A DNA stretch of 32,000 bases from NCBI GenBank assembly GCA_964344685.1, contig CAYFOK010000007.1, forward strand, positions 79,771-111,770, written 5' to 3'. The notes under the pieces are model-generated. The model ran no database searches, had not been told where the DNA came from, and was given only the letters and a program-made list of their open reading frames with translations. Below, one piece after another: positions 1,929 through 24,535 of the stretch. The position numbers were made by a program, and so were the translations under genes. The number at the start of each line of letters is the position of its first letter. The first letter of the stretch is position 1. This DNA is from an uncultured Candidatus Scalindua sp. Its GTDB lineage: Bacteria; Planctomycetota; Brocadiia; Brocadiales; Scalinduaceae.

Positions 1929-2006
1929 CGGGGCGTGGCTCAGCTTGGCTAGAGTGCCTGCCTTGGGAGCAGGAGGTCGCTGGTTCGAATCCAGTCGCCC
2001 CGACCA
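1929..2006 (+). tRNA. tRNA-Pro (anticodon UGG), with encoded CCA
   Basis: Hand-folded cloverleaf. Acceptor CGGGGCG/CGCCCCG. D stem GCTC/GAGT. Anticodon stem CCTGC/GCAGG with loop CTTGGGA (anticodon TGG, G37). T stem GCTGG/CCAGT with loop TTCGAAT. Discriminator A followed by CCA. Confidence 0.95.
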
Positions 2007-2008
2007 TT
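1962..2008 (+). repeat. attL: 47-bp core repeat (3' half of tRNA-Pro from the anticodon loop through CCA plus TT)
   Basis: Identical 47/47 to 18374-18420 in direct orientation. Confidence 0.85.
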
Positions 2009-2012
2009 CATA

Positions 2013-3074
2013 TCAACAACTTACGACATCAGGGTGGTTCTCATTTTCACCCACTGTCGCCAAATTGTCGCCAGAATTCAGTATCTGGATAGTAGATCGA
2101 AGCTTTTCCGGGCTGAGGTGAGCATACCGCTGAGTAGTCTTAACGTCCTTATGCCCTGCCAAACCCGCAACTGAATAAAGATCAGCACCCTTCTGAACTA
2201 ACTTTGAACAAAAATCATGCCTTAGATCGTGAAACCTGAAATTCTTGATACCTACTTTCCTGCACGTATCCCTGAAAGACTTACCAACCCAATTCCGGTT
2301 ATAAGGTTTGCCATTCTTACCATAACCAAATACATAGACGTTTTCCTTATCCATATATATCATTTTAAGTAAATTATGGACATTATCAGTCATTGGTATG
2401 CTATGTGGCTCCCCATTCTTTGTCCTCTCAAGGTTGATCATCCGGGAAAAGATATTAACCTGGTTCCACTCCAGATTAATAATGTTGGATAGTCTCAATC
2501 CTGTTTCCCTAGCAATTGTAACAATAGGCTTTAACCATTCAGGCAGTGCATTCATTAACCGCCCTTCTTCGTCTTGAGAAAGATATCTTACCCGTTTGAC
2601 ATCACCGCTGGGAATCTTGAATCTGGCAAAAGGAGTCTCGTCAACCAATTCCCAATCATGAATAGCCAGATTATAAGCATGTCGTAATAGACGAAGCTCG
2701 TGATTTACAGTAACATCCCCCACCCCATCATTACGTCTGTCTGTAATAAATCTAGAAAGATGTCTGGGCTTTACATCGTTAAGTAACTTCTTACCAAAAC
2801 ACTGAAGTATCCTTTTTGAGAAATAAATATCATTTTTGTAGGTAATTGTCCCCTTGTTTGGCTTAGAATGCTCAGCAAGATATTTATCAATCAGGCTTGC
2901 TACGGTTATCTTATTTCCTTTCGGTTTCTTAAAAAAGGAACCTTCGATAATTTCCATCCTGATTTTCGCCTCTATTGCCTGCGCAAGTTTTCGATTTGAA
3001 GTTCCAAGGCTTTTTTCTACTTTTTTTCCATCATGCCTTATTTTAGTCCACCAGATTCGGCCTCTTAAATACAT
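2013..3074 (-). CDS. int: tyrosine recombinase / phage integrase
   Basis: Catalytic motifs are readable: TGLRLSNIINLEW (Arg), HDLRH (His-x-x-Arg), GHKDVKTTQRYAHL (His, Tyr). The likely start is the ATG at 3074, preceded by AAGGAGG. The ORF track extends it to 3158. Confidence 0.9.
   Translation of the reverse strand: MYLRGRIWWTKIRHDGKKVEKSLGTSNRKLAQAIEAKIRMEIIEGSFFKKPKGNKITVASLIDKYLAEHSKPNKGTITYKNDIYFSKRILQCFGKKLLNDVKPRHLSRFITDRRNDGVGDVTVNHELRLLRHAYNLAIHDWELVDETPFARFKIPSGDVKRVRYLSQDEEGRLMNALPEWLKPIVTIARETGLRLSNIINLEWNQVNIFSRMINLERTKNGEPHSIPMTDNVHNLLKMIYMDKENVYVFGYGKNGKPYNRNWVGKSFRDTCRKVGIKNFRFHDLRHDFCSKLVQKGADLYSVAGLAGHKDVKTTQRYAHLSPEKLRSTIQILNSGDNLATVGENENHPDVVSC
2049..2073 (+). promoter_or_regulatory. 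candidate integrase arm-type binding site (ACCCAC TGTCGCCA AAT TGTCGCCA), copy 1
   Basis: This 25-bp sequence is repeated exactly at 18207-18231. Internally it holds two TGTCGCCA octamers 11 bp apart. It lies inside the 3' end of int, 41 bp from the att core. Confidence 0.5.
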
Positions 3075-3129
3075 ATTTTTACCTCCTTTCCGAAGCCTGA
3101 CGGTGTCTGAATGACTGTTACCGGCAGAA

Positions 3130-3396
3130 TTATATATCATTTCTGATAGTATCTCCAATAATTTTATCAGATGCTTCTTCTACTTGATTTATATTGCGTT
3201 TCATGGAAGCCATTAGCGCATTTATATCATTAAGATCAAAGAGAACTCTTCGACCCAACTTTACTGAGGGTATTTTCCCCTGAGCTGCCCATTCATACAA
3301 CGTCTTTACCGAGAGAGAGGTGTACTCAGATACTTTTTTGATACCTACATATCTTTCTCTGTTAATCTCATTTTTATCATTTAATTTGTTTGCCAT
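3130..3396 (-). CDS. xis: excisionase-family helix-turn-helix DNA-binding protein
   Basis: 88 aa, directly upstream of int on the same strand. The segment VSEYTSLSVKTLYEWAAQGKIPSVKLGRRVLF is typical of excisionase/MerR-like HTH_17 proteins. Confidence 0.75.
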   Translation of the reverse strand: MANKLNDKNEINRERYVGIKKVSEYTSLSVKTLYEWAAQGKIPSVKLGRRVLFDLNDINALMASMKRNINQVEEASDKIIGDTIRNDI

Positions 3397-3975
3397 ATTG
3401 TCCGCTGTTAGTATTTATTTGAACTACTGATAACTAATGATGAAGATATTGCGACGAGAATTTTAGATTATTCTAAATTTTGACTGTTACTGCCATTAAC
3501 ATTAAATGCCATATATAAACAAATCATATACCAAATAAATGGTAAGACAGATTATTCTATTTGCACATAGTAATGGAGGTTTTTAAATTGTTATTTGAGA
3601 AAGGGTTACACTAAAATAGTTTTTATTAATATTTTTCTTTTTCAAACAAATGTGTGACAAGAAATCAAGGAAAAGTATGCAATGACACAAAAGCATGCCA
3701 GACATCAATGTACCATCATGGAACGATTCTTAGTCTTACTGCATCATAATCATTCAGCGTCGAACCAATGAAGCATTTTCAGCAAAACATCAATATACTT
3801 CATAGTATTTAAGAAAGCTGATTTGCAAAATAGAAAGAGTCTATCACCGCCAGGCAGCAATTAAGAATACACTTGAAACAATCCAGATATACTATAAAAT
3901 TCGCTTTTATACAGAAACGATAATAGAGCTCGTTTGCCGTCATTAACCAAAACCACAAAATAGTATAATTATAGA

Positions 3976-4422
3976 ATGAAGAAAATATATTTAGACGTTT
4001 GCACTTTATGCCGTCCATTTGATAATCAGTCTATGATGCGAATACGTCTTGAAACAGACGCATACTATTTAATATTAAAAAGCATTCAGGATAAAACTTT
4101 CGAAATTATTGTATCTCCAGTACACTTCAAGGAGGTTGAAGCTATAGAAGATATATATGAACGTATAGAATTAACCGTTTTGTTAAATAAATACGGTAAA
4201 AAACCAACATTCAAATTGAATGAAATTAAAAAAAGAACTGAATATTTAAATTCCTTAAATTTTGGAATTGCTGATGCTGCCCATTTAGCATTTGCTGAAA
4301 CATCGGCAGATTATTTTATTACCTGCGATGATAAATTGTTAAAGAAAATTAGCAAAATAAAAGATATTAATATACAAGCAATTAATCCTGTAAACTTTTG
4401 TACAAAGGAGAACTTGAGGTGA
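3976..4422 (+). CDS. PIN-domain protein (VapC-like toxin candidate)
   Basis: 148 aa with PIN-like acidic residues in context: IYLDVC, FKEVEAIED, IADAAHLAFAE, ITCDDKLL. Confidence 0.8.
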   Translation: MKKIYLDVCTLCRPFDNQSMMRIRLETDAYYLILKSIQDKTFEIIVSPVHFKEVEAIEDIYERIELTVLLNKYGKKPTFKLNEIKKRTEYLNSLNFGIADAAHLAFAETSADYFITCDDKLLKKISKIKDINIQAINPVNFCTKENLR

Positions 4423-4622
4423 AGCAAGGACAATATATAAAAGAAGAGAAATTACTAAAACAAGGTGTTGATATTTTAATGGAAAAATTAGGACCAATAG
4501 AAACAAGTAGGTTTTTATCCTTTCCACCACAGAAGAGAATAGAATCTGTGAAAAGGCATCAAAAGTGGCAATCCGAGCTTGATAAAAACAAGTTTTTAGA
4601 TGATTTATTCGGAAGCAAGTAG
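4419..4622 (+). CDS. small protein translationally coupled to the PIN gene (antitoxin candidate)
   Basis: The GTG start overlaps the PIN stop (GGTGA) and AAGGAG lies 8 nt upstream. The LGPIETSRFLSF segment resembles small partner proteins of PIN genes, recalled from memory only. Confidence 0.45.
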   Translation: MKQGQYIKEEKLLKQGVDILMEKLGPIETSRFLSFPPQKRIESVKRHQKWQSELDKNKFLDDLFGSK

Positions 4623-4705
4623 GCTTTTCTAAATTGAAGTAAACTTATATGAAATATAGAAAAGGCCAAAGTACTGAGAAAAATATATAACGAGAGGAAA
4701 GGATC

Positions 4706-4891
4706 ATGAAAAATTATGAGAAGTTATTTCGAGAACAAATGCAAAATCCTGAATTTGCCAAAGCCTACCATGAAGCTAAATCAGAGAAGAAATTAGATGA
4801 GATGTTGGACGATTTAAAAGAAAAAATAGATAAAGATGCCCCTAAAAATCTTTTGCTGGAAACTATCAATTCAATTCAACATCAGATATGA
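4706..4891 (+). CDS. small helical hypothetical protein
   Basis: 61 aa with GAGAGGAAAGG upstream of the ATG. The charged helical sequence fits no family I recognise. Confidence 0.35.
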   Translation: MKNYEKLFREQMQNPEFAKAYHEAKSEKKLDEMLDDLKEKIDKDAPKNLLLETINSIQHQI

Positions 4892-4967
4892 TTACATCAG
4901 AATATTTTATAGAAAAAATTATTAATACTTCAAATAAATAACCAGAAATGTTTATAAAGAGGTAAAT

Positions 4968-5198
4968 ATGTCACGTTGTCATGTATACGGTTCAATAAAG
5001 GCAAAAGAAGAGTACACCAACGAAGTATTTCAGATCGATAACAAGCCTGTTTTAGTAGAACATATTCCAGCAATAGTCTGCGTCCGCTGTGGTGAAGAAA
5101 CATTTAGCCGTGAAACCACAGAACGGATTCGCCGCATGGTACACGGAGAAGCAAAACCTGTAAAATCTGTTTCAATGGAAGTATTCACTTTTATATAA
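4968..5198 (+). CDS. YgiT-type (MqsA N-terminal-like) zinc-finger protein
   Basis: 76 aa. VEHIPAIVCVRCGEETFS is the hallmark second zinc knuckle of YgiT-type fingers. The first knuckle is degenerate (RCHVYG). Confidence 0.55.
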   Translation: MSRCHVYGSIKAKEEYTNEVFQIDNKPVLVEHIPAIVCVRCGEETFSRETTERIRRMVHGEAKPVKSVSMEVFTFI

Positions 5199-5648
5199 AA
5201 ACCAAATAAAAAAGCATCTAACACCTATAAGCCCCCCACACACACACACACTTTTCAAGTAAGAAACCACCCCATATGATTAACAGATCAGAATAACATT
5301 ACATAAAAGATACTATAATCGAAATCACCAAGCATATGGGCAACATGACAATCGCAATATCGATAGTGACTCTAGCAAATATAATTGCTGTAATTATTCA
5401 GTTATACAAATAGAATTTAGCACACCAACATTATAAGGAACGAAAATGTGACCCCTTGCTTGTCACAAGAAAAAGAAGAAGTAGAGTTTTTTGGTTTTAG
5501 TTCTAACTGTATTGTTTTACTTAGGCTTAAGGCCAGAATGGGGAGTATGATTTACTCCCTGTTTTGGCCTGTTTTGATTTGCTTACTTGACAATTACTTG
5601 ACAGTAATAAAGTTTACATTAGACTGCTGAAGGATTAAGAAAAGTGAA

Positions 5649-5667
5649 GGTTGTTTCTTAAAATCAA
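5649..5667 (+). repeat. third, degenerate copy of the GGTTGTTTCTTA-N-ATCAA motif
   Basis: GGTTGTTTCTTAAAATCAA. The first 12 nt are identical to 17947-17958 and the orientation matches. Confidence 0.4.
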
Positions 5668-5866
5668 TGGGGGAAAAAGAGTATAAATTAAAGCTTCAGA
5701 TAATAAGAGGATTGGGGATCAGATAAAAATAGAATAATTATAGTTTTTATGACTATTTATTTGAGAAACACATTATCAAATCATTTTTAACTTTAATAAA
5801 AAAGGTGAGATGTGACCTCGTTCAGTTGTAATATAATTAAACTTAAAAGGTTACAGCTATTCTGCA

Positions 5867-6571
5867 TTACTCTCCATCAATTTGTTCGCTGCTATGAATC
5901 GTGTAATGCCGTTCAATGAATTTTATTGTGTTCGTGAATTTAACTTTGTCCTGTTTAGGTGCTTTTTGTTGCATCTCCTTTAACATTGGCAAAAGATAGC
6001 ATTTATGTCTATTACTTCCGTTTATAAATTGGTATGCATATACCTCTTCATCAAAAATAGAGAACTTCCTCATTGGTATATCCTGATTTATAAATCCATG
6101 GTTAAGAGGGCTGACATGCAATGAAATAAGTCGCTTTGAAGCTGACGGGGTTAAGACTAAACCAATCCAGTTTTGATCTTCGCAGTATTCGTATGCTTCA
6201 AGAAAGGCTTTGCCCATAATAATCTTACTGTTATGGCCTATAATTAAATTCCCATAAGAAACAGCGCCTCTTACTGGTAATCGCTTGAGAATGCAATTTC
6301 TAATAAAACCCTTTGATTTGTTAATGAACTCAGGGTATCCAGAATCATCTGGTGATGTTGCGTAAATAATAAATGTATCCGCATAGAATGTAAAGTTTAC
6401 TAAAGACTCAAAGTGAGTTGTTTGTTTCTGTAACTTTTTTAAAACTTCGTCAATAGAATCTTTAAGGATATCTAGGTACAATGAACGGTCTTCATTGTCA
6501 ATTTTATATTTGAATCCTATAACATCAAAGTGAGCAATCCAAGTGTTGTAACTTTTCCAATTATTATCCAT
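5867..6571 (-). CDS. nucleotidyl-cyclase-like palm-domain protein (class III cyclase / GGDEF / mCpol-like fold)
   Basis: 234 aa. Motifs are spaced as in class III cyclases: HFDVIGFK (F-x-D-x-x-G-F), FYADTFIIYA (second metal Asp), LPVRGAVSYGNLIIG (R-x-G-x-x-x-G), GKAFLEAYEYCE. Recognised by eye only. Confidence 0.5.
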   Translation of the reverse strand: MDNNWKSYNTWIAHFDVIGFKYKIDNEDRSLYLDILKDSIDEVLKKLQKQTTHFESLVNFTFYADTFIIYATSPDDSGYPEFINKSKGFIRNCILKRLPVRGAVSYGNLIIGHNSKIIMGKAFLEAYEYCEDQNWIGLVLTPSASKRLISLHVSPLNHGFINQDIPMRKFSIFDEEVYAYQFINGSNRHKCYLLPMLKEMQQKAPKQDKVKFTNTIKFIERHYTIHSSEQIDGE

Positions 6572-6642
6572 GTTATTCTTTCAGCTAATGCTGAAATCAC
6601 TTGCCAAAATGCACCAACTTTTTGGACAAGTGGATTGATTTA

Positions 6643-7239
6643 TTAGGAATTTTCTTTTCTTTCGATCTCTTCTTTGTACCATTTATCTATATGTTTTGCT
6701 CCCTCAAGAGACTTAACAGATGAGGCTGTCATTCCTAGTATTAAGGCAATCTTTTGATAATTTAATCCCTCTTTTCTAAGTTTTAAAATCAAGCACCTTC
6801 GACGATAGGGAACCTCAGCAGGAGCATCTAAGCTTGCACTTTTTTCTAGAGATTTGAGTCTCTGTTCTTCCGTTTGATGAAAAATAGGAGTTCTGAAAAA
6901 TTTTCCTTCAAAATAATCCCATCCTAGTAAGTGTGCGATTAGTTCTAATAGTTCAGCTATAACATGAGGTTCGCTATTTTCTTTAACGATTTTTTTTATG
7001 TCACTTTTTAGAATATCTAGGTCAGCCAAAATTGTAGCCTTCAATATTTCATCATTAGTTACAACCTGTATAATTCTTTTTTTTATTTTTCCTATAATCT
7101 TTAAACACTCATCTTTAAAATATTTTGGATTCTGATATGCCGATGCCATATCATGGGAGCATCTGTCTTTTCCATTATACTCCCAAGATGTGATTTCCAT
7201 CTGTAAGTTATAAGGGTAACATTTTTTCTTTTTATTCAT
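6643..7239 (-). CDS. hypothetical protein with a C-terminal sigma-70 region 4 / LuxR-like HTH
   Basis: 198 aa. The C-terminal RRRCLILKLRKEGLNYQKIALILGMTASSVKSL is HTH-like. Confidence 0.5.
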   Translation of the reverse strand: MNKKKKCYPYNLQMEITSWEYNGKDRCSHDMASAYQNPKYFKDECLKIIGKIKKRIIQVVTNDEILKATILADLDILKSDIKKIVKENSEPHVIAELLELIAHLLGWDYFEGKFFRTPIFHQTEEQRLKSLEKSASLDAPAEVPYRRRCLILKLRKEGLNYQKIALILGMTASSVKSLEGAKHIDKWYKEEIERKENS

Positions 7240-7583
7240 AACAAGTTATTCAATAATTCCCAGGTAACACCACTATGGCAACGATATTCAGAAGAATCAA
7301 ATTACTATACTTCTTTATAAGGAACAATTGCAGTCTGAAATATCAAAATAGCATTTATAGCAGATTATTTTTTTAGCCTGAGTTGCAATTCACGATTCTT
7401 TACAAATTCATCAAATTCATTCTTTTGTAGGCCAAGATTTTTGTTAATTTTTATCCATTTCTATCTCCTTTATCTTGCCTACACACTTCTTTTCTGTTTA
7501 CGGTCACACCCTTTGGAGCGCTAATACCTAGCTTGATCGTGTCTCTTCATTTCATTAACAAACATTTCTTGATCATCATTTTA

Positions 7584-7982
7584 TTAAGTCCACTTTAGAT
7601 AGTCAGGTAATTCAGGGGAACCAAACTTTTCATTATATTCATCTTGAAATACCTTCTGTTTATCGAGAGCATCGTCCAGTAACCGTTTCCAATTATCCAG
7701 ATCGGTGCCAAATTGCTGAAAGTCATCGTCTACAAAATGAGCGTACCTGATAGTGCCTATTTCTAACTTTGTTGGTTTCCCCTCGACAAGGTCTTCAAAG
7801 TATAGTTTATCTCGGGTCATAGTTTTTTGTACATCTGTCCAATAGTAATGCGGTAGGTCTGATACAAATGTAAACTTTAGATAGTGTTTCTTGAAAAAAG
7901 ACTTTGCAAACACAGCGTAGACGTGAATATATTTCTCTCCCTCTTTGAAAATATCAACAAAATCTAATTTGTGGAGCCTCAT
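7584..7982 (-). CDS. hypothetical protein
   Basis: 132-aa ORF with AAGGAGG upstream of the ATG. I recognise no family. Confidence 0.5.
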   Translation of the reverse strand: MRLHKLDFVDIFKEGEKYIHVYAVFAKSFFKKHYLKFTFVSDLPHYYWTDVQKTMTRDKLYFEDLVEGKPTKLEIGTIRYAHFVDDDFQQFGTDLDNWKRLLDDALDKQKVFQDEYNEKFGSPELPDYLKWT

Positions 7983-8361
7983 TCTTTCACCTCCTTTTGC
8001 TCTCTATATTAGTTTATAGTATCTGGAATACTGGTTGTCCTGTTTTCCTGTATACGATCACCATGGCTTCCAAGTATCATCACCCTCTTTGTATGGCGTG
8101 AACAGAAAATACAAACTTAATGCCAATAACAGCCCACCGATTTTATTGCTGAAGAATATCATGGTTAACAGGGATAAAAAAACATAAAACCAAGCAAATT
8201 ATTCTAAATATTTTTATGTCTTTTTTGTTAATTATCATTGTTTTTCAAATCACCCTGTATTTCTTTTTTTCTAATTTAAAGGATACATCTAAACACCACA
8301 TTTCAACAGAAAAGCAACAACAAAAATAGCAAGCCGCCTTTAATATAAAGAGATTTTTTCT

Positions 8362-8670
8362 TTAATAATTATTCTTTTTTGTCTGAACCCATCCATATAG
8401 AAATACAAGCACGGTAATGATATTTATTACTGCCCACGCTTCACGAAATAAATGAATTGGTTCTATGGGGTTGTAGACAATAGCGATTACTATGAAGGCC
8501 ACAGTAATAAAGCCACAACCCTTTTCTTTGTAATATTGATAAGCGATATATGCAGCACACCCACAGATTGCCCAGCGCATAAGCTGATAGTAATAGTACG
8601 GCAGCGAAAGCAGTGCGATAAGTAACAAGGCTATCGGCCCAATCCATAACAGTTTATTTGTTTTTGCCAT
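8362..8670 (-). CDS. small multi-pass membrane protein
   Basis: 102 aa with three or four hydrophobic segments. Confidence 0.6.
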   Translation of the reverse strand: MAKTNKLLWIGPIALLLIALLSLPYYYYQLMRWAICGCAAYIAYQYYKEKGCGFITVAFIVIAIVYNPIEPIHLFREAWAVINIITVLVFLYGWVQTKKNNY

Positions 8671-8938
8671 GCCTTAAAATTTAATAAATGCAAAGGATAA
8701 GAAAGATACGAGAGATCTGTGCTCTATAATGAGCCTTCAATATATTCACCTAGATCTACCATTCCTTGCATGAAGTTGACACAATTACGACATGCCATAT
8801 GAGTACCTTTACATAAGTCTTCATTAATGATTTATCAAATTTGTAAAGTATGAATTTGGTGAAGATATTGACAATCACCCATTACCACGACGAGACTCTC
8901 TACGGTAATCAAGTATCTCTCGAAAGATGTCATGTTTC

Positions 8939-9856
8939 TCAAAGCCTTAAGTCATGCGACTTCATCCTCCGCCCATATTTCATGTAAAGTATCTCTCGAA
9001 GGCTGTCACGTTTCTCCCAGTATTCTAACTCTAGATGCTCAATGCCCATCTTTTTGTAACATAATGCAATATGACGGTAGCATTCTAACTTGGAATAGCT
9101 TGCATAGCTTACAACCTCAGGCTTCAGCTCTATAGCCTTCTTAAAATTCTCTATCGCCTCCTCATATAGGCTAAGCCCCTTCTGTACGTAACCAAGAGAT
9201 TGGTAGTAGAATGAATCCTTTGGATTCAGCTCTATAGCCTTCTTATAATTTTCTATTGCATCCTCATATAGACTATCCATGTGTTGTGCGTTGGCAAGTT
9301 CATAGTAGTAGTCTGCAACCTTTGAATTCAGCTCTATAGCCTTTTCATAATTTTCGATTGCATCCTCATATAGACTAAGCTTATGCTGTGCACGACCAAG
9401 GTAATAGTAGTAATCAGCAACCTCTGGATTCAACTGTATGGCTTTCTTACAATTCTCTATTGCATCATTATTTAGGCTATCCCCAATTGAACTATCTTCG
9501 TATTGTGCACGGCCAAGGTGATAGTAGTAGTCTGCAACCTCTGGATTCAGCTCTATAGCCTTCTTACAATTCGATGTTGCATCCTCATATTCACACAGAG
9601 GATATTGTGCACGGCCAAGGTAATGGTAGTAGTCTGCAACATCTGGATTCAACTGTATGGCTTTCTCACAATTCTCTATTGCCTCGTCATACTCCCCTTT
9701 TATAATATGCTCTTTCCCTTTGAAGAAATAAAAATCAGCATCTCTGACTTGTTCTAAAGCAGTAAGCCCTCTAATGACAAGTTCTTTTCGTACTTTTGGG
9801 TCGTACCTTGTAATGGCAGTCGATCTTTTTACAATAGCCTTGTTCTTCTCGGTCAT
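8939..9856 (-). CDS. tetratricopeptide (TPR) repeat protein
   Basis: 305 aa with about seven AIE(N)xKKAIELNPxxADYYYxLGxAQ units. The start codon is 1 nt after the stop of the upstream J-domain gene. Confidence 0.9.
   Translation of the reverse strand: MTEKNKAIVKRSTAITRYDPKVRKELVIRGLTALEQVRDADFYFFKGKEHIIKGEYDEAIENCEKAIQLNPDVADYYHYLGRAQYPLCEYEDATSNCKKAIELNPEVADYYYHLGRAQYEDSSIGDSLNNDAIENCKKAIQLNPEVADYYYYLGRAQHKLSLYEDAIENYEKAIELNSKVADYYYELANAQHMDSLYEDAIENYKKAIELNPKDSFYYQSLGYVQKGLSLYEEAIENFKKAIELKPEVVSYASYSKLECYRHIALCYKKMGIEHLELEYWEKRDSLREILYMKYGRRMKSHDLRL
9121..9700 (-). repeat. intragenic tandem DNA repeats (about 96-117 bp period) encoding the TPR units
   Basis: GGATTCAGCTCTATAGCCTTCTTAnAATT-type blocks recur at about 9121, 9226, 9322, 9424, 9541 and 9644. 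Confidence 0.8.
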
Positions 9857-9857
9857 A

Positions 9858-10748
9858 TTAGTATTCTACCTCTTGGATTATTTCTTTATACTCCGCAACA
9901 AGTCCATCTAGTAATGTCTGATTATCGTCGATCTCTTCTTTTATATTGTCTGCAAGTTCCTGTAGTAAATCCCTGTCCTCTTTTTTCGCATCATCAACTT
10001 TCACTTTCAATTTATAGGTCTCGTCTTCTTTCAAATCATCAAGTTCCGCATACCGTTTTGCAATAATTCCAAGAATGGTGTCATAGTCTGCCTTCAATCT
10101 GGCAAGCGTCTCCACTGGGGTCTCTTTAGCTATTTTCTCTTCTCGTTCTGCTCGACTCATATATTCTCTTAGGGTTCTTTGATCCTTATTCCTGTATGCC
10201 TCATTTATCACAGCCATGATACTATGATATTTTTTTCTCCGCTTGTCGTCTCTTGCCTTGTCTGGATGGAATTTAATAGCAAGCCTTCGATATAGTCTTT
10301 TTAGTTCTTCTTTATCTTCCGTGTTAAGAGTTGGACCACTTTCTTCTTGCTCCAGATATTCTCTATATTCATCTGCTGCCTCGGACGCCTCGCCTCCAAG
10401 ATCATTAATCTTCTGCCTTTCTTCAGTAAAAGTCTGATTTACTTCATCTTCAATGCTATCTAAATCATGTTGAGAAGTTTTTTTACCCTGAGCAAGGTCA
10501 ATCCTAAGCTGATATTCTTTCACTTTTAATTTTATTTTGTCAAGTTTCACATAAAGCAAGCCAACCCTTGAATTATATTCACCCAAGAATACATTCAATG
10601 TAATATTTATGTTCTGGACTTGGATTAATAACTCAGACGCCTCATTCTCTTTTTCCGCTATACGAGCTTTCCAAATATTTAATTCCTTCTGGACATCACC
10701 TGTAGAAGGAACTAATTTATTACCCTTTGCTTTGTTATTTTCTGCCAT
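9858..10748 (-). CDS. J-domain (DnaJ-like) protein with flanking coiled coils
   Basis: 296 aa. The central LKRLYRRLAIKFHPDKARDD...AVINEAYR segment carries the HPD tripeptide. No Gly/Phe or zinc-finger regions of full DnaJ are present. Confidence 0.85.
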   Translation of the reverse strand: MAENNKAKGNKLVPSTGDVQKELNIWKARIAEKENEASELLIQVQNINITLNVFLGEYNSRVGLLYVKLDKIKLKVKEYQLRIDLAQGKKTSQHDLDSIEDEVNQTFTEERQKINDLGGEASEAADEYREYLEQEESGPTLNTEDKEELKRLYRRLAIKFHPDKARDDKRRKKYHSIMAVINEAYRNKDQRTLREYMSRAEREEKIAKETPVETLARLKADYDTILGIIAKRYAELDDLKEDETYKLKVKVDDAKKEDRDLLQELADNIKEEIDDNQTLLDGLVAEYKEIIQEVEY

Positions 10749-11039
10749 CGTGGAAACATTTTCCGATATTTTTCAACTTAAGATTATTTTACTTACACAT
10801 AAGTAATGTCAATCATTATACTTTGCAGGAAAGTTCATCTATTTGAATCCTTAAAAGAATAAACTTAATTTATAAAAGCATATCCTACCATCTAATGGTT
10901 GATTAATTTGTAGAGTGAAGTTGCTAGCGGTATAGTAGTGAGGATAGATATCAAAATCAAGATTAAAAACAAGGACTTACGACACATTTGATTAATTTGC
11001 AAGTATTTAATAAATAAAAACTTACAAAATAGAATGTTA

Positions 11040-11058
11040 GTTGTTTCTTGGTATCAAG
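11040..11058 (+). repeat. GTTGTTTCTTGGTATCAAG: downstream copy of the ori-like 19-mer
   Basis: 18/19 identical to 17948-17966 in the same orientation. On the minus strand it reads CTTGATACCAAGAAACAAC. Confidence 0.5.
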
Positions 11059-11152
11059 GTAAAGAAAGCATGGTTACTTCACCTTTTTTATTAAATTAAA
11101 AAGATTTGGTAACATACTTCTAAAAAAAAATTTAGAAACCATAGTTTTAAAA

Positions 11153-12061: not shown

Positions 12062-12062
12062 T

Positions 12063-13453
12063 TTATGTTTTCCTCACAAATTTAAGTCTCTGATTTTCAA
12101 AGTCCTTCTCATTAAAGAGAATTTCGACAGAGAGAAGCAAGATTAACTCTGTTTTAGTTTTGTTGATATCCTCTGACCTGAACATTTTTCCAAGATATGG
12201 AATATCACCAAGAAGCGGTATTTTCTGATTTTTTTGTTAGAAGAATTTTCCATTAAACCACCTACATAAATTTTCTGCCCATCATTAATCAATGTAGTCA
12301 TTTCAAGTGAGTTTTTAGTAAACGATGGTGAGTCAATCAAAGGGTTTTGAACGGTTTGAACAATGTCACTGATCTCTTGACTAAGATATAATTTAACAAC
12401 ATTGTTTTCTTCAACGTCAACCTTGACGTTTAGTAAAACGCCAACGTCTCGATATTCGATATTTTCAGATCGTAAACCATTTGCAGATACAGAAGTACCT
12501 TTTCGGATAGGTTCTTCACGTCCAATTTTAATAACGGAGGTCTGACCGTCCTGGACTAATACATGTGGCTTTGAAAGAATCTCTACTTTACTTTCAGAAT
12601 TTAAAATGGTGATGAAAGTGTTTACATCTCTATGAAAAGTAAAAGCTTTGAGCCCTTTACCAGCAAGACCAGTAGTCAAAGACGTTATTCCCTCTGTTAA
12701 TAGAGATATTTGACCGCCTCTATTATTTTTCGTCCTAAAGAAGTACTCGACACCATATTGAAGAGCATCGTTTAAAGTGACTTCCATAATTGTGAATTCT
12801 ACAAGTACCTGTTTTGGCCGTTTGTCAAAGGTTTTAATAACCTCCTTAACCTTATTATAATCGTCTTTACCGGCTTTTATGATAAGTACGTTAATGCTTT
12901 TGTTTTCAGTAATAGCAATTTCCGGGAAGACATCATTCAGTAAAGATTTTAGATTTCCAGAGCTTTCATATTGCAAACGATACAGATAAACATTTTTTGT
13001 GTCATCCGGTGAAGTTTGTATATTAAGATCATTCAGGTTTTCGTTATTATGAATTCCATATAACGCACCGTTTTTTATTAGTTGATAGTTTTTACTATTT
13101 AAAACGGTACGAACCATTTTCAGAATTTCATCTCTTTTAAATTTACCTTTTATTTCGATATCAACATTACCGATCAAATCATCAACGATAATGTAATTCT
13201 CTTTGATGATTCCCATCAAAAGACTAACAACATCTTTGAGTTCAACTTTCTCAAATTGCATATCAACGTCAATACCACCTCTTTTAAGTTCGGGCTTTAC
13301 CTTGCCCTCTTTTACTTTCCATTGCCAGTTTTCGACATTTTTTGTTTTAGCCGTATTGGTAAAAAGTTTTTTCTCTGGTTTCTTTTTTATGAGCGCACAA
13401 CCCGGAGCACAAAAACATATTACAAATACTAAGACACAGATTTTTCTCAGCAT
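12063..13453 (-). CDS. pIV/GspD-type secretin, interrupted by a frameshift at an A7 tract (12229-12235)
   Basis: The secretin core is readable (VLVEFTIMEVTLNDALQYGVEYF). The annotated frame ends at 12143 in nonsense sequence. The -1 frame after the A7 run reads NQKIPLLGDIPYLGKMFRSEDINKTKTELILLLSVEIL, the canonical secretin C-terminus, and stops at 12063-12065, 1 nt before the Zot ATG. The likely start is the ATG at 13453 (AAGGAG upstream), giving the signal MLRKICVLVFVICFCAPGC. Confidence 0.85.
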
Positions 13454-13559
13454 TTTTACAGTCTCCTTTTCAATAAGGAAATTTCTGCCAGTTAAAAAAT
13501 TCACGCCAAAGGTTAAGTTTTTTTGTCATGCTTTTTAAACTTCTGGAAACGTGTTGATT

Positions 13560-13805: not shown

Positions 13806-14026
13806 CCCAATCCTTCATTTTTGTTCCATTCATTCATTTCCATTTCTACACATTGTTCTGCTGTTAAAGTTTTTCCACTATCCAAATACATTTCCCAACC
13901 AACTAGACCATATTCCCTATAACTTAGACCGGTAGAATCAGAAAAATCACCTTCACGCAAACCACATTTATTTCTCAAATGCATTATATATCTATCAATA
14001 AATTCTTCTTTTTCTATATCTACCAT
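13802..14026 (-). CDS. hypothetical soluble protein (phage module)
   Basis: 74 aa. The start is 1 nt after the stop of the pVI-like gene. No family recognised. Confidence 0.5.
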   Translation of the reverse strand: MVDIEKEEFIDRYIMHLRNKCGLREGDFSDSTGLSYREYGLVGWEMYLDSGKTLTAEQCVEMEMNEWNKNEGLG

Positions 14027-14027
14027 T

Positions 14028-14363
14028 TTACAACCTCACAAAAGGTATCATCCGTATAGCCATTCTGAAAGCTACAGCAGACATAATAAGTGAAAACCCT
14101 TCAACAACTTTCAGGTGTATCGCGAACCACGCCGTAATGCCTGTAAAGTTGATTAAATAGCTATTGACGCCGTAAGTACCGTCAATGGTATTTAACGTGC
14201 TCATGACTCCCTCAATGAGCATATAGATCATTCTGCTAAACAAGACCGGAACAATGGTAATTACCAGCGTCCAGATGAATAACTTCATAGCGGTGAAACG
14301 TACAACACTATAACCAACCCAACTACCAAAGGCCGAAAGTAACCAGCTTAATAATGCAGGCAT
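14028..14363 (-). CDS. pVI-like minor coat / membrane protein
   Basis: 111 aa, multi-pass and hydrophobic. It starts MPALLSWLL, compared with M13 g6p (112 aa) starting MPVLLG, and sits directly after the pIII-like gene as in Ff phages. Confidence 0.55.
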   Translation of the reverse strand: MPALLSWLLSAFGSWVGYSVVRFTAMKLFIWTLVITIVPVLFSRMIYMLIEGVMSTLNTIDGTYGVNSYLINFTGITAWFAIHLKVVEGFSLIMSAVAFRMAIRMIPFVRL

Positions 14364-14386
14364 TTTTTAGACTCCCTTGAATTTAA

Positions 14387-15604: not shown

Positions 15605-15612
15605 AATTACCT

Positions 15613-15735
15613 TTAACTATATGTAATTGTATGAATAACTTTTTTAACTACCCAAATAACCGCCAATAATCCCACGATAGTGGAAGCAAATATAAAAATC
15701 TTTGATGTGTCTATACTTATCATTGAATAATCCAT
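15613..15735 (-). CDS. 40-aa major-coat-like protein, paralog 1
   Basis: MDYSMISIDTSKIFIFASTIVGLLAVIWVVKKVIHTITYS: acidic N-terminus, one TM helix, basic C-terminus (a Pf3-type coat layout with no signal peptide). This is the internal ATG of track ORF 15613-15798. Confidence 0.55.
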   Translation of the reverse strand: MDYSMISIDTSKIFIFASTIVGLLAVIWVVKKVIHTITYS

Positions 15736-15812
15736 AGTTTTTTCCTGATAGAAGAATTTATAAAAATGTTGGCCAGCCTCTAGAAAGCCAACCAACACCC
15801 GGCAAGGAATCG

Positions 15813-15935
15813 TTAAGAACGATTAGCTAGTTTGATAACCTTTTTTACTGCCCATATGCCAGCAATAGCGGTAACTATTACACCTGCCAGAACAAGCACC
15901 TGAGTAGTATCAATGGCCAATGTACTGAAATCCAA
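15813..15935 (-). CDS. 40-aa major-coat-like protein, paralog 2 (not in the ORF track)
   Basis: My translation: (M)DFSTLAIDTTQVLVLAGVIVTAIAGIWAVKKVIKLANRS. TTG start with AAAGGGGGTG upstream. 18/40 identical, ungapped, to paralog 1. Confidence 0.5.
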   Translation of the reverse strand: MDFSTLAIDTTQVLVLAGVIVTAIAGIWAVKKVIKLANRS

Positions 15936-15964
15936 GACTATCACCCCCTTTCCTGTTATAAAGG

Positions 15965-16270
15965 TTAAACTGCGTATTTAACACACACGTAAGCCAGCAG
16001 AGAACCACAGACCACACCCGCCAGACCCATAAGGAAATTCTCTGACCATACACCCTGCAGGGATACGGAAGAGAGGAAAACATGTATTGAATTTACAGGA
16101 GCATCAATTGTCATATTGCCAGAGCACAGGAAATTCAGAGGGGTCATACCGGAAGACATTAATACATCGCCATTCACGCCATTGGAAGTGATATTGATCA
16201 GACCGTTATAATTATTAGAAGAGATAACCACGTCCGACATATCACCACAATCATAGTTAGTAATAGCCAA
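15965..16270 (-). CDS. hypothetical protein with a C-terminal TM anchor
   Basis: 101 aa. TTG start with AAGGAG 8 nt upstream. C-terminal LMGLAGVVCGSLLAYVCV. Confidence 0.45.
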   Translation of the reverse strand: MAITNYDCGDMSDVVISSNNYNGLINITSNGVNGDVLMSSGMTPLNFLCSGNMTIDAPVNSIHVFLSSVSLQGVWSENFLMGLAGVVCGSLLAYVCVKYAV

Positions 16271-16274
16271 GTTT

Positions 16275-16439
16275 TTAACTCCTTGTCATAATATTAAAAA
16301 GCCATCCAACCATCATGGAGAGAACACCAAAAGACAACACCAGAGTAAAAAAATAATCGAACATAACATTTCCGGTTATATTTACCGGAAGAATGTCCCA
16401 CACTCCACCCCAATCACCAAAAGCACCTATAACAAGCAT
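16275..16439 (-). CDS. 54-aa hydrophobic protein (not in the ORF track)
   Basis: My translation: MLVIGAFGDWGGVWDILPVNITGNVMFDYFFTLVLSFGVLSMMVGWLFNIMTRS. GGAAAGGTGTGGATT lies immediately before the ATG. It is nearly identical to the initiation region of the gene at 16774. Confidence 0.4.
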   Translation of the reverse strand: MLVIGAFGDWGGVWDILPVNITGNVMFDYFFTLVLSFGVLSMMVGWLFNIMTRS

Positions 16440-16528
16440 AATCCACACCTTTCCAATTTTAAGTTTAAGAGGGAGGCCAGGAGAATAGCTCCATGTACTA
16501 CGGAGCTAACCTCCCCCTTAAAAACAAA

Positions 16529-16774
16529 CTATTTTTGTTTACCGTTTTCTAAAGTAACACGCTTAACATCCATACGAATTTCATTCCCTGACGGAAAGAA
16601 CTTGTTGAAATCAACCTTGACAGGGTCTCCCATGTTTAGAAGCTGTTCACCTTTAACTTTCTCCACAGGAAGAAATACTCTAAACGTGTCTCCAAGATCT
16701 TTACACATCACTTTAAAACCTACTCCCTTATCAGAAGCATTTACTAAACTAGCAACCATTCCATCAACTACCAT
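16529..16774 (-). CDS. candidate ssDNA-binding protein (gV position and size)
   Basis: 81 aa from the internal ATG at 16774, preceded by GAAAGGTGGTGGATT. It is small and beta-rich-looking and lies immediately after Rep. The call rests on position and size only. Confidence 0.4.
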   Translation of the reverse strand: MVVDGMVASLVNASDKGVGFKVMCKDLGDTFRVFLPVEKVKGEQLLNMGDPVKVDFNKFFPSGNEIRMDVKRVTLENGKQK

Positions 16775-16796
16775 AATCCACCACCTTTCAAAAAAA

Positions 16797-17858
16797 TTAA
16801 ACATTATTAAAAAAATAATCAGAACCGGAATATTCATCTTCATTTTCCGGTTCTGATTCCTCTACATCGCTACCTTTAAAAAGCTTATGCCCGGCAAAAT
16901 CAATTTCTATAAGTCCAATCTTAACTGCTTCGATTACATATGAGGCCAACTCTGAGTTAATTCCGGTTTCCTTAAAGGTTTTATAGACAACGCCTTTAAG
17001 TGTTCCAAATGTCACATACTCTTTTTCTTCTTCCTGGGTAAGTTCCTCCATGTCTTCACCGCCTATGTCAGCCATGTCTTTCAGGCCGTAACAATTACCA
17101 AACTTTGAAACCATCCTTTTCCCTTTCATGTCAATAATGATTTCTTTTAATCGATCATCATTAATATCAAGACCAAACTTCATTGCATATTTTGAGATTT
17201 CCTTACCATACCCTTCTGTAACCGGCCTGATATCTGAAATCTGACCAAGACCAACTTTCAGAAGAACGTGCTCAAGGTCTTTCTTTATTGGGTCTAAGAA
17301 TGTTCCTTGTTCAGTATTCCGCATATTCACAACATGTCTATCAACGGTTAGATCGACTAACATATGAGAGTGTATATGCCATCCGGTTCCTTCTTTGTAT
17401 GTCACTTCAATATGTTCAACACCTCCACGTATATACTTTTTCCACCATGAACGCTCTTTTTTAAGCAGACTTGTTGATTTTTTGTAACATTCCAAAGCAG
17501 TCTTCAAACTATCCCTGTTTAATTCGTTTGCAGTAATGGTTAAGAGATGAGGGTTTTGCATATCTTTACCAAGTTTTTCCACCCTGCGAGACAGTATTGA
17601 CGCACGGTATGAATTGCACACCGGGCAAACTCTATCTTTACAGCGAACTTGCGGTTCAAAAAGCACACTTGATATATCTCCTTTCTTCGCTTTAACAAAA
17701 ATTGTATTCCCGCATATACCCATTCGTTTTGCTCTCGATTCCTGATCAACTTCACGAATAAGTTTTTCAATACGGAATAAAGTTTTTAACCTCCAACTAT
17801 TCTTAACGGTCACAACAGACTCTAACTTTTTCTTCTTCTTAACGGCACATTCACACAT
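16797..17858 (-). CDS. HUH rolling-circle replication initiator (pC194/pUB110 Rep_1-like)
   Basis: 353 aa. CKDRVCPVCNSYRAS (zinc-ribbon-like N-terminal motif), GWHIHSHMLVD (HUH motif) and GKEISKYAMKFG (catalytic Tyr motif) occur in the expected order. GGAGGT lies upstream of the ATG. Confidence 0.8.
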   Translation of the reverse strand: MCECAVKKKKKLESVVTVKNSWRLKTLFRIEKLIREVDQESRAKRMGICGNTIFVKAKKGDISSVLFEPQVRCKDRVCPVCNSYRASILSRRVEKLGKDMQNPHLLTITANELNRDSLKTALECYKKSTSLLKKERSWWKKYIRGGVEHIEVTYKEGTGWHIHSHMLVDLTVDRHVVNMRNTEQGTFLDPIKKDLEHVLLKVGLGQISDIRPVTEGYGKEISKYAMKFGLDINDDRLKEIIIDMKGKRMVSKFGNCYGLKDMADIGGEDMEELTQEEEKEYVTFGTLKGVVYKTFKETGINSELASYVIEAVKIGLIEIDFAGHKLFKGSDVEESEPENEDEYSGSDYFFNNV

Positions 17859-17947
17859 AAATTACCTCCAAAAAAATCATTAAAAACGGCTGAAAATTGC
17901 CACATTGTAAGTTTCAATTTTTCAATGCCTTAAAAAATCGTGTTCCG

Positions 17948-17966
17948 GTTGTTTCTTAGTATCAAG
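17948..17966 (+). repeat. GTTGTTTCTTAGTATCAAG: upstream copy of the ori-like 19-mer, candidate Rep nick site
   Basis: On the minus strand it reads CTTGATACTAAGAAACAAC, about 90 nt upstream of the Rep ATG. CTTGATA is the nick-site core of pC194/pUB110/phiX174-type origins. Confidence 0.45.
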
Positions 17967-18009
17967 TCTATAGCTTCTTTCTCACAAATGAGCCAAATTG
18001 AGGCCAAAA

Positions 18010-18059
18010 AAAAACCAGTGTTTGCGCGCGCTTGGTGAGCGTGCTCAACACTGGTTTTT
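18010..18059. other. large hairpin: 13-bp stem (AAAAACCAGTGTT / AACACTGGTTTTT) with a GC-rich 24-nt loop
   Basis: Read directly. The loop TGCGCGCGCTTGGTGAGCGTGCTC can itself pair (GAGC/GCTC). It lies in the non-coding region upstream of Rep. It could be a minus-strand origin or packaging signal. Confidence 0.5.
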
Positions 18060-18134
18060 GTAGTTGATAAATTAATTTTTTTTACTATTATATTGTTGTT
18101 ATTCTTTTTCATTGGTGAATGGGAATAATAACTA

Positions 18135-18171
18135 GGAGGGCATAAGTTGCCGCTTATGTCTTCCTTTTTTT
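18135..18171 (+). terminator. terminator-like hairpin plus T7 run
   Basis: GGAGGGCATAAG ttgccg CTTATGTCTTCC (10/12 paired) followed by TTTTTTT. Confidence 0.4.
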
Positions 18172-18206
18172 AATAATAAAACTAAAAATAACTTTGAAAA
18201 AATAAA

Positions 18207-18231
18207 ACCCACTGTCGCCAAATTGTCGCCA
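18207..18231 (+). promoter_or_regulatory. candidate integrase arm-type binding site, copy 2
   Basis: Exact 25-bp copy of 2049-2073, located 142 bp inside attR. Confidence 0.5.
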
Positions 18232-18373
18232 ACTCCAGTTAAATTGACAGTAATCAGCGTGAAATGACAGAAAACAGTTGAGAGTCTTAAGCCATTATGT
18301 TATAAGTGGTAACAGTCGTAACAGACACTTTGTCAGGCAGTTATAAAATTAACAATAAATGGTTCTACCCTCT

Positions 18374-18420
18374 CTTGGGAGCAGGAGGTCGCTGGTTCGA
18401 ATCCAGTCGCCCCGACCATT
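18374..18420 (+). repeat. attR: 47-bp partial tRNA-Pro copy
   Basis: Identical to 1962-2008. The upstream sequence does not continue the tRNA 5' half. Confidence 0.85.
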
Positions 18421-24491: not shown

Positions 24492-24535
24492 AAATAAGAA
24501 TTAAGATAAAAATTTTTTAGAGGTTAATTTGATAT

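Follow-up and report, generated by a model that had tools for sequence, protein, structure and literature searches.

What kind of element has inserted into the tRNA-Pro(UGG) gene of Candidatus Scalindua, a marine anammox bacterium? In this work, we have analysed a 32,000-nucleotide stretch of its DNA (the window), for which a preliminary description had proposed a mobile element integrated in the tRNA gene with precise ends at a 47-bp repeat, leaving the kind of element open. The repeat, the tRNA, the integrase and empty sites in relatives all support that reading, and because the right 7 kb of the element reads as a complete filamentous-phage module, we identify it from its genes as a temperate inovirus prophage. 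We propose that a single temperate and integrative filamentous phage makes up the whole 16.4-kb stretch (probability about 0.85). Its integrase (Int) and excisionase (Xis) genes lie at the end with the regenerated tRNA and the inovirus core at the other, with toxin-antitoxin-like genes and variable cargo between them (Table 1).

The two copies of the repeat are identical at 47/47 positions and in the same orientation, as had been described, and an exact repeat of this length has an estimated chance expectation of ~1e-20 in 32 kb. By repeat search and direct reading, the identity block is closed by mismatches at 1960-1961 versus 18372-18373 and at 2009 versus 18421. The description had placed its start at the anticodon loop, and indeed the 7-nt loop CTTGGGA (anticodon 1964-1966) starts at position 1962, from which the repeat runs through the CCA (2004-2006) plus TT. 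The tRNA-Pro(tgg) at the left copy, on the plus strand, is the one tRNA that ARAGORN finds in the window and the sole Rfam match within 1-20500, in agreement with the claim that only this copy belongs to a complete cloverleaf. In the whole genome (46 contigs) ARAGORN counts 42 tRNAs, with Pro(tgg) and Pro(ggg) once each, tRNA-Pro(UGG) being single-copy in the assembly. Being identical, the two copies are compatible with a crossover anywhere within the 47 bp.

In silico deletion of the interior leaves, as predicted, an intact tRNA-Pro followed by the ADH/BirA genes; the joint aligns end to end with a genome of the same genus (G005; 81% over 1188 bp) and also fits the true empty sites of G014 and G017. 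In both of the latter, the tRNA is directly followed by a homologue of the window sequence from 18421 onward, into the ADH gene. The remaining points of the preliminary description were borne out as well: the integrase stop codon (2013-2015) lies 4 nt past the repeat, an excisionase-type HTH_17 gene is present at 3130-3396, nearly every interior gene in the ORF list is on the minus strand, and the island is AT-rich, with a GC content of 0.350 versus 0.393 for the genome, a value equally low in 1.4% of 766 same-size genome windows. In the Islander scheme, the ends of an active tDNA island are marked to the nucleotide by a regenerated tDNA and a displaced, like-oriented piece of its 3' part (PMC4383910); here we find a whole tRNA gene whose cognate 3' fragment follows downstream in direct orientation, a tyrosine-recombinase gene with the catalytic R..HxxR..H/W..Y residues inside the interval, and presence/absence polymorphism exactly at the repeat, with empty attB sites in relatives. 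Roux et al. 2019 detect inovirus prophages by a pI-like ATPase together with a direct repeat, 10 bp or longer, that lies in a tRNA or adjoins an integrase (PMC6813254); the 16.4-kb element fits this logic and has canonical att sites in their sense.

Table 1. Features of the integrated element and its ends (positions in the window).
Feature	Position	Strand	Basis
Regenerated complete tRNA-Pro(UGG)	1929..2006	+	ARAGORN; Rfam RF00005, 64 bits
attL core, 47 bp, anticodon loop to CCA+TT	1962..2008	+	Exact repeat of 18374-18420
Tyrosine integrase, 353 aa, ATG at 3074	2013..3074	-	Pfam Phage_integrase (PF00589) 2.7e-35
P' arm, exact 25-bp element, TGTCGCCA twice at 11-bp offset	2049..2073	+	Repeat search
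Excisionase-type HTH_17 protein, 88 aa	3130..3396	-	Pfam PF12728 1.5e-11
Toxin-antitoxin-like block: PIN-like 148-aa gene overlapping 74-aa partner	3976..4622	+	Weak PIN match, E 0.018
61-aa ORF and 76-aa zinc-finger protein	4706..5198	+	Weak Pfam MqsA_antitoxin match, E 0.0016, below curated cut-off
Cargo block: 234-aa, 198-aa C-terminal HTH, 132-aa, DUF6804 (102 aa), 305-aa TPR, 296-aa J-domain	5867..10748	-	Pfam
Second Rep nick-like motif, sense strand CTTGATACCAAGAAACAAC	11039..11058	-	Motif search; 95 nt past zot stop
pI/Zot-type morphogenesis ATPase, 302 aa	11153..12061	-	Pfam Zot (PF05707) 1.4e-14; PHROG 197 4.7e-32
pIV-type secretin	12063..13504	-	Pfam Secretin 1.2e-24; PHROG 1012 (M13 protein IV) 7.5e-50
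Two small ORFs, 81 and 74 aa	13560..14026	-	ORF list
pVI-like minor coat protein, 111 aa, hydrophobic	14028..14363	-	PHROG 974 3.9e-09; TM segments
pIII-like adsorption protein candidate, 405 aa	14387..15604	-	Position and topology
Two paralogous ~40-aa major-coat-like proteins	15613..15944	-	ORF and hydropathy analysis
Small core ORFs: 101 aa (C-terminal TM), 57 aa (TM), 104 aa	15965..16843	-	Topology; kept in sister copies
Rolling-circle replication initiator, Rep_1 family, 353 aa	16797..17858	-	Pfam Rep_1 7.1e-13
Conserved 60-aa ORF (p60) upstream of rep	17930..18112	-	Sequence comparison
P arm: second exact 25-bp tandem-octamer element (18207-18231) and tandem motif pair	18207..18277	+	Repeat search
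attR core, displaced 3' fragment of tRNA-Pro outside any cloverleaf	18374..18420	+	Repeat search, ARAGORN

The integrase carries, as read in translation, the catalytic motifs TGLR, HDLRH and GH..Y (RYAH), and its best match among solved structures is XerA (5hxy, 3e-15); the HTH_17 protein is kept beside int in sister elements with 52-67% amino acid identity. The octamer TGTCGCCA occurs five times in the window against 0.45 expected, and four of the five lie in the two arms. The P' arm sits within the last codons of int and is kept in three relatives (G006, G018, G008) and in part in the scar of G005, while the P arm, which also holds the tandem pair ATTGACAG..AA.CAG at 18243-18257 and 18263-18277, is 78-87% conserved beside attR in G018, G006 and G012. 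Such 25-bp tandem-octamer repeats on either side of the core look as expected for integrase arm sites. The tyrosine integrase, the regenerated tDNA, the displaced fragment and the arm-type repeats on both sides of the core are shared with Islander-type islands and the lambda-type attP, although in the Scalindua element one arm site falls inside the int coding region, and the anticodon loop is one of two insertion hot spots in tDNAs (PMC1635311). The integration module shows no departure from the tDNA-island or lambda type.

The check for empty sites in relatives was positive. Within the genus, the tRNA-Pro site is empty in seven genomes, next to ADH in two (G014, G017) and next to tRNA-Arg/His in five (G001, G002, G007, G009, G016); it bears a ~70-bp scar in G005, a related integrase in two (G006 and G018, with int at 80-83% nucleotide identity at the same tRNA and attR on other contigs) and a decayed copy in G012. 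Since empty, scarred, occupied and decayed sites coexist, the insertion is polymorphic and not fixed, and these counts exclude that all relatives carry the same interior. One relative uses tRNA-Gly(CCC) as target instead. The order P arm, p60, Rep, core, Zot, cargo, PIN block, Xis, Int is repeated in sister copies on another contig of the same genome (C23) and on contig C27 of G017, which have a different integrase and different cargo. The PIN block is 88-95% conserved in C23 and is present in several other genomes, and the DNA of the adjoining 61-aa and zinc-finger genes is 80-90% conserved at scattered loci of other genomes. For the cargo block, no counterpart was found in C23, no match in a PADLOC defence search except a generic TPR, and no informative match in the PDB. 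The cargo bay takes up 6.5 kb, and the total of 16.4 kb is a large size for an inovirus.

The core genes, between 11153 and 18112, are all co-oriented on the minus strand. Rep has, on reading its sequence, the HUH motif HIHSH and a Tyr in EISKYAMKF, and a nick-like motif (17947-17966, sense strand CTTGATACTAAGAAACAAC) lies inside p60; upstream of rep this motif recurs, with at most two mismatches, in nearly all compared copies that still have rep (G017 x5, C23, C1, G009). Zot has a Walker A motif GSGKT, a Walker B motif IIDEA and one TM segment near residues 203-225. The pVI-like protein has 91-98% amino acid identity in sister copies. The presumptive pIII-like protein, with an N-terminal signal/TM and a C-terminal TM anchor, has 48-64% identity in sister copies, is the most divergent core protein apart from the 104-aa protein (p104), and gave no match in Pfam or PHROG searches. 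The two coat-like proteins, which gave no family match in the PHROG search, have an acidic N-terminus, a hydrophobic centre and a basic C-terminus, and p104 is by its position a candidate ssDNA-binding protein; the pIII-like, coat and ssDNA-binding assignments are candidates from position and topology. Pfam and PHROG searches gave no family match for the 81- and 74-aa ORFs, and no lysogeny repressor was identified in the element.

Is this phage still functional? The open frame of the secretin stops at 12143 and the last 56 aa lie in another frame, with a 1-nt deficit near 12222-12235; the intact 486-aa copy of C23 (tblastn) reveals the frameshift, and five homologues have one more A. If real, this frameshift would prevent the export of virions, except where a secretin is provided by a sister prophage. 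It is thus possible, if rather doubtful, that we are looking at a defective, immobilised prophage that no longer completes its own cycle, perhaps for want of induction too, and stays as a cargo-bearing resident island. The genus is full of decayed copies, with many Zot fragments bearing stop codons, the scar of G005 and the fossil of G012; a frameshift also interrupts zot in the sister copy C23; and episomal attP was not found, a pattern scan for the joint giving 0 in IMG/VR and two short contigs in metagenomes, which are better read as attR on a site already bearing a scar. However, apart from the secretin the core reading frames, Rep and Zot among them, are all open, as are Int and Xis; the catalytic motifs of Int, Rep and Zot are intact and attL and attR are identical. 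A one-base difference in an A run may also be an artefact of assembling the genome from a metagenome, and if C23 shares the cell, its intact secretin could complement the defect in trans. Because the repeats are perfect and the int and xis genes intact, the insertion is probably recent and can probably still recombine.

A composite origin, which we consider improbable, would assign the 47-bp repeats to a 9.5-kb integrative island (int, xis, toxin-antitoxin genes and cargo), inside which a 6.9-kb inovirus moves separately. The latter would be released as a single-stranded circle, without excision, by Rep starting at 17947-17966 and stopping at 11039-11058, as CTX-phi is from prophage/RS1 arrays. 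Two near-identical direct CTTGATAC..AAGAAACAAC motifs do bracket the phage core exactly (a degenerate third copy is at 5649), sister-copy homology ends right at the zot stop codon, and in G018 and G012 a P arm adjoins non-phage DNA as well. However, the motif downstream of zot is missing from five other full cores (C23, G017 x3, G009) and is therefore not a family feature. In nearly all compared copies, including minimal p60-Rep-Int elements, the rep end adjoins the att-proximal region with int or xis-int at the far side, which argues that rep and int form one backbone; moreover, a 6.9-kb virion genome lacking an integrase leaves the repeated int-linked insertions unexplained. Least probable is an integrated rolling-circle plasmid or other non-viral integrative element whose secretin and Zot-like ATPase serve export of some other kind. 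In its favour, the Rep_1 family is typically one of plasmids, Rep is unmatched in 50,697 deposited phage genomes and several core ORFs are without family matches; but the gene set and order are those of an inovirus, the secretin matches the M13 protein IV family and Zot matches PHROG 197 (Table 1), a pVI-like match and two coat-like proteins are present, the best Zot matches among deposited phages are Vibrio and Pseudomonas inoviruses (at most 28% identity), and IMG/VR contains a related fragment.

How would a single integrative filamentous phage use this site? We infer that attP on its circular double-stranded form consists of the 47-bp core and flanking arm-type integrase sites, the tandem TGTCGCCA octamers lying 143 bp from it on one side and 41 bp on the other. 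Int would join attP to the tRNA-Pro gene, with strand exchange probably in the anticodon loop, and the single, essential tRNA-Pro(UGG) would be restored by the phage copy of its 3' part; Xis and Int together would reverse the reaction. The excised circle may then undergo rolling-circle replication from the CTTGATA-type nick site upstream of rep, and the single strand, once coated, would be extruded by the Zot ATPase via the phage's own secretin, without lysis.

The closest analogues are the Pf prophages of Pseudomonas aeruginosa (Pf-tRNA-Gly, e.g. Pf4; Pf-tRNA-Met, e.g. Pf6), temperate inoviruses that enter tRNA genes via their own tyrosine integrase. Their attP is a 3' piece of the tRNA, 27-46 bp long; they encode an HTH_17 excisionase as well as accessory genes, toxin-antitoxin genes among them, the integrase type correlates with the target, and a genome holds several related prophages (PMC7549136). 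All these traits are seen in the Scalindua element, which differs in its host, a Planctomycetota anammox bacterium, in having its own pIV secretin, in its target, tRNA-Pro(UGG), with an identity block from the anticodon loop, and in its size with the large cargo bay. The likeness is one of lifestyle and architecture only: membership in the Pf lineage by sequence is not borne out, given the low identity of Zot to Pseudomonas inoviruses (26-27% over 71% of its length) and the absence of a match for Rep among deposited phages. CTX-phi of Vibrio is likewise a filamentous prophage with a rolling-circle Rep, but it lacks an integrase and relies on the XerCD of its host at dif, whereas the Scalindua element targets a tRNA with an Int and Xis of its own. 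Mini elements on contig C27 of G017, with rep but no morphogenesis genes and in tandem with full phages, recall RS1 next to CTX.

The bacterium KSU-1 is also an anammox bacterium. In Supplementary Table 4 of Roux et al. 2019, Planctomycetes have five inovirus species, and 'Planctomycetaceae bacterium KSU-1' is named as carrying an example prophage (PMC6813254). A search of supplementary tables of that study gave no entry for Scalindua, Brocadia or Kuenenia (PMC6813254), and the catalogue describes no anatomy for the anammox elements. The insertion described here is of a textbook kind, and the viruses of its host group have hardly been characterised; in this work, the att sites, the arms, the empty sites and the family architecture have been worked out for an inovirus of an anammox host.

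Our analysis supports and sharpens the interpretation given in the preliminary description: the 16.4-kb element is a temperate inovirus prophage in the tRNA-Pro(UGG) gene of Candidatus Scalindua. Its right 7 kb form a filamentous-phage core running from a rolling-circle initiator to a Zot ATPase (Table), and where relatives of the Zot gene are named, they come from Candidatus Scalindua MAGs. The genes for the integrase, whose closest solved structure is XerA, and for the excisionase-type protein adjoin the regenerated tRNA. The interior had also been said to be poorer in GC than its surroundings and to be coded mostly on the minus strand. Both statements hold, as the island has a GC content of 0.350 versus 0.393 for the 3.48-Mb assembly, a level equalled or undercut by 1.4% of 766 equal-sized genome windows, and nearly all genes inside it lie on the minus strand.

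Table. Features of the prophage and its right flank, in window coordinates
Feature	Position	Strand	Basis and remarks
tRNA-Pro(tgg)	1929-2006	+	sole tRNA in the window (ARAGORN)
attL core	1962-2008		47 bp
Anticodon	1964-1966		
Tyrosine integrase (Int)	2013-3074	-	Pfam Phage_integrase 2.7e-35; TGLR, HDLRH, GH..RYAH intact
25-bp element, P' arm	2049-2073		beside attL, inside the int end
Excisionase-type protein (Xis), 88 aa	3130-3396		HTH_17 (Pfam)
~156-bp sequence	5448-5603		18-bp-stem hairpin and T run at 5530-5570
Cargo block	5867-10748		234-aa unknown, HTH protein, 132-aa unknown, DUF6804, TPR, J-domain
Second nick-like motif	11039-11058		95 nt after zot
pI/Zot ATPase			Walker A and B, one TM segment; Pfam 1.4e-14, PHROG 197 4.7e-32
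pIV secretin			PHROG 1012 (M13 protein IV) 7.5e-50
Secretin frame change	12063-12240		453 aa, then 56 aa in another frame
pVI-like protein			PHROG 974
405-aa protein at pIII position			N-terminal signal/TM, C-terminal anchor
Small hydrophobic ORFs			two ~40-aa coat-like paralogues among them
Rep_1 rolling-circle initiator	16797-17858		HUH and Tyr motifs
25-bp element, P arm	18207-18231		
attR core	18374-18420		47 bp
Lipid-type gene cluster	23271-28698		
663-aa protein	28823-30814	-	internal 168-bp repeats

The attachment site is precisely delimited. The preliminary description had reported a direct 47-bp repeat that opens with the anticodon loop and ends with CCA plus TT. Both a repeat finder and the raw sequence confirm that the two copies are identical over 47 bp, and they diverge right outside (1960-1961 versus 18372-18373, and 2009 versus 18421); the position of the anticodon places the start of the repeat on the first base of the loop, and its end does include CCA plus TT. 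An exact repeat of this length within 32 kb is far beyond chance, and on its length and the context of int, xis and arms we rejected both a chance origin and a duplication of the tRNA. A Rfam search of window positions 1-20500 returned nothing besides this tRNA-Pro. Since tRNA-Pro(UGG) is present in one copy in the assembly, its restoration upon insertion was necessary.

On both sides of the core there are further sequences of the kind on which an integrase acts in phage lambda. An exact 25-bp element, containing TGTCGCCA twice at an 11-bp offset, is found in the P' arm and again in the P arm, and circularisation would place the first 41 bp to one side of the core and the second 143 bp to the other. 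The TGTCGCCA octamer is present 5 times in the window where 0.45 would be expected, 4 of the 5 lying inside the two arms, and in the non-coding P arm a ATTGACAG..AA.CAG motif also occurs twice in tandem. Beside attR the P arm is 78-87% conserved in three other species, and the P' arm is kept in G006, G018 and G008, three of the compared genomes. Judged from its sequence, this core with two-sided arms is a lambda-type attP layout. In both G006 and G018, attR matches the tRNA over five more bases, into the anticodon stem, which fits a crossover in the anticodon loop, the exact position being unreadable from identical sequences. The anticodon loop is one of the two known hot spots of insertion into tDNA (PMC1635311). 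DNA folding gave nothing decisive (z +1.1 for the P arm and z -2.0 for the gap after zot), and a scan for promoters and terminators stayed at background level.

How is this site occupied in related genomes? Among the same-genus species genomes that were classified, the site is empty in G014 and G017, where tRNA-Pro is followed by the ADH gene, and in G001, G002, G007, G009 and G016, where it is followed by tRNA-Arg(tct) and tRNA-His(gtg). G005 carries a deletion scar, a ~70-bp P'-arm remnant fused to ADH. The site is occupied in G006 and G018, with an integrase 80-83% identical at the nucleotide level after the tRNA and attR plus the P arm on other contigs, and G012 holds a fossil, with the last 39 int codons at attL and a mutated attR core beside a host peptidase gene. 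With empty, scarred, occupied and decayed sites in the genus, the insertion is polymorphic exactly at the joint that had been predicted, which is the outcome of a check proposed in the preliminary description. In G008 (contig C74, locus L026) a close relative of the integrase, 81% identical in nucleotides, lies with a conserved P' arm beside tRNA-Gly(CCC) and not tRNA-Pro; it is a recent target change, with the enzyme little altered.

The neighbourhood of tRNA-Pro bears other traces. P'-arm remnants of ~55-70 bp, each with one TGTCGCCA, persist after tRNA-Pro in L005 (G005:C155) and in the metagenome contigs L045 and L046, the latter two with the P arm and core directly upstream of the remnant, which suggests that elements have inserted and decayed at tRNA-Pro more than once. 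In most Scalindua species (L051, L053, L054, L057, L058) the order is tRNA-Pro, tRNA-Arg(tct), tRNA-His(gtg), and in the window's own genome (window 1929-18510), G005, G014 and G017 the ADH-BirA genes follow instead, so a rearrangement breakpoint falls exactly at the phage attachment site. In the right flank of the window lies a gene cluster that resembles those for ladderane lipids in anammox bacteria. It codes for a CrtI-family desaturase, two ketosynthases of the FabF type and a radical-SAM protein of the B12-binding type; for the last of these, NCBIfam gives the 'ladder' lipid family as the best match, under the curated cut-off. The 663-aa protein next to it has an EACC1-associated caspase-type domain, also under the curated cut-off.

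The prophage belongs to a family that is common in the genus. Zot homologues are present in 12 of the 20 species genomes of the genus and, at 41-46% identity, in 6 of 47 genomes from a sister family within the order (G063:C2, G065:C1, G042, G045, G067 and G040, complete genomes included); thus inovirus-like prophages reach beyond Scalindua among anammox bacteria. A protein map of the related loci gives a recurrent backbone: P arm, p60 (a conserved 60-aa ORF), Rep, core, Zot, variable cargo, PIN block, Xis, Int. This backbone is shared by a sister copy that fills a whole contig of the window's own genome (C23, 1-19707; L022, 19.7 kb), whose core is 77-85% identical to that of the window in nucleotides and whose integrase is only 35% identical. 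Its cargo consists of a type IIG restriction-modification-like set (Eco57I/MmeI methylase, ResIII/T5orf172), an SMC-like ATPase and an IS with an rve transposase. In the window, a PIN-like/74-aa gene pair and a weak MqsA-like zinc-finger pair lie inward of xis. PADLOC found no defence match in the cargo block except a generic TPR, and PDB sequence searches yielded nothing informative on the 234-aa, PIN-like and HTH proteins; reading the 234-aa ORF as a cyclase was unsupported by Pfam, PADLOC and PDB sequence searches. Copies of the ~156-bp sequence with 79-88% identity occur at several loci, both in this genome and in others of Scalindua; they may represent a mobile terminator or a MITE-like repeat.

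Is the whole 16.4 kb one unit? Minimal elements of p60, Rep, in some cases the 104-aa core ORF p104, and Int, lacking morphogenesis genes, are found in the window's own genome (C1:60788-64270, L035), beside tRNA-Leu(CAG) and the tmRNA gene, and in G017 (C27:9675-12530, L027), in tandem with a full phage, an arrangement that recalls RS1 beside CTX-phi. These may be satellites of the inovirus family. Together with the recurrent backbone they place Rep and Int in one backbone, which argues that the 16.4 kb is a single unit. A rival is that the core would be released from two putative origins, independently of excision. A CTTGATA-type motif, which we take to be the nick-site type of Rep_1/pC194-type replicons and phiX174, is kept upstream of rep in nearly all compared rep-carrying copies, and the second nick-like motif, after zot, brackets a 6.9-kb core; however, the latter is missing in five other full cores, and we therefore rank the two-origin model as a minority rival and do not take it as the mechanism of the family.

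Is the phage alive? The perfect att cores and the open Int, Xis, Rep, Zot and other core ORFs count in its favour, and the frameshifted secretin counts against it. In the run that follows TCAG, the secretin gene is one A shorter than in five homologues; by alignment the missing base belongs to the A4/A5 run and not to the A7 tract, a placement that is ambiguous in homopolymers, and the frameshift may be either real or an assembly error in the A run. The C23 copy is the reverse, with an intact secretin of 486 aa and a frameshifted zot. Also against activity, a pattern joining the conserved end of the P arm to the start of the P' arm across a 56-64-nt gap detected no episomal attP in IMG/VR (0 matches) or metagenomes. 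In the two short metagenome contigs that it retrieved, the P' arm after the core is only ~55 bp long and gives way to an unrelated lipoprotein-like gene; we read them not as attP but as attR formed at a tRNA-Pro already scarred as in G005.

One could imagine a mobile unit on two levels, in which Int and Xis would carry the whole 16.4 kb from one tRNA-Pro site to another, the integrated copy would use its two direct Rep nick sites to release an infectious single-stranded 6.9-kb mini-genome with no excision, and neither sister prophage would export particles without the other, the secretin being broken in one and zot in the other. If active, such a phage would give marine anammox bacteria their first tractable virus-and-integrase toolkit. 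We consider this two-level scheme improbable, and retain the reading of a single temperate inovirus prophage.

In lifestyle, the closest analogue of this prophage is the Pseudomonas Pf group. In Pf phages the type of tyrosine integrase goes with the target, and HTH_17 excisionases and toxin-antitoxin morons are present as well (PMC7549136). Kinship in sequence to deposited phages is remote, the window Zot being at most 28% identical to theirs and Rep giving no match among them; IMG/VR holds one 4.9-kb fragment with a Zot 84% identical to that of the window. Prophages of such kind were defined as canonical by Roux et al. 2019, whose list has 5 inovirus species for Planctomycetes, a prophage of strain KSU-1 among them (PMC6813254). 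A full-text literature search brought up no description of inoviruses from anammox bacteria, and a search on viruses of anammox bacteria found almost nothing. KSU-1 is an anammox bacterium.

As a type of element this prophage is ordinary, and its moderate interest comes mainly from its host. Anammox bacteria account for a large share of marine nitrogen loss; they are not known to grow outside enrichment cultures, and no genetic system is known for them. The locus shows a temperate inovirus of Candidatus Scalindua delimited in full: its integrase and excisionase are defined, as are the core and arms of attP, attB lies in a single-copy tRNA, and sister species offer empty targets; these parts are raw material for an integration vector, and the locus is a marker for phage-host dynamics in oxygen-minimum-zone metagenomes. 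Its cargo bay is swappable, with J-domain and TPR genes in the window and the restriction-modification-like set in the sister copy, and since the family is common in the genus, it is a plausible carrier of genes between anammox populations.
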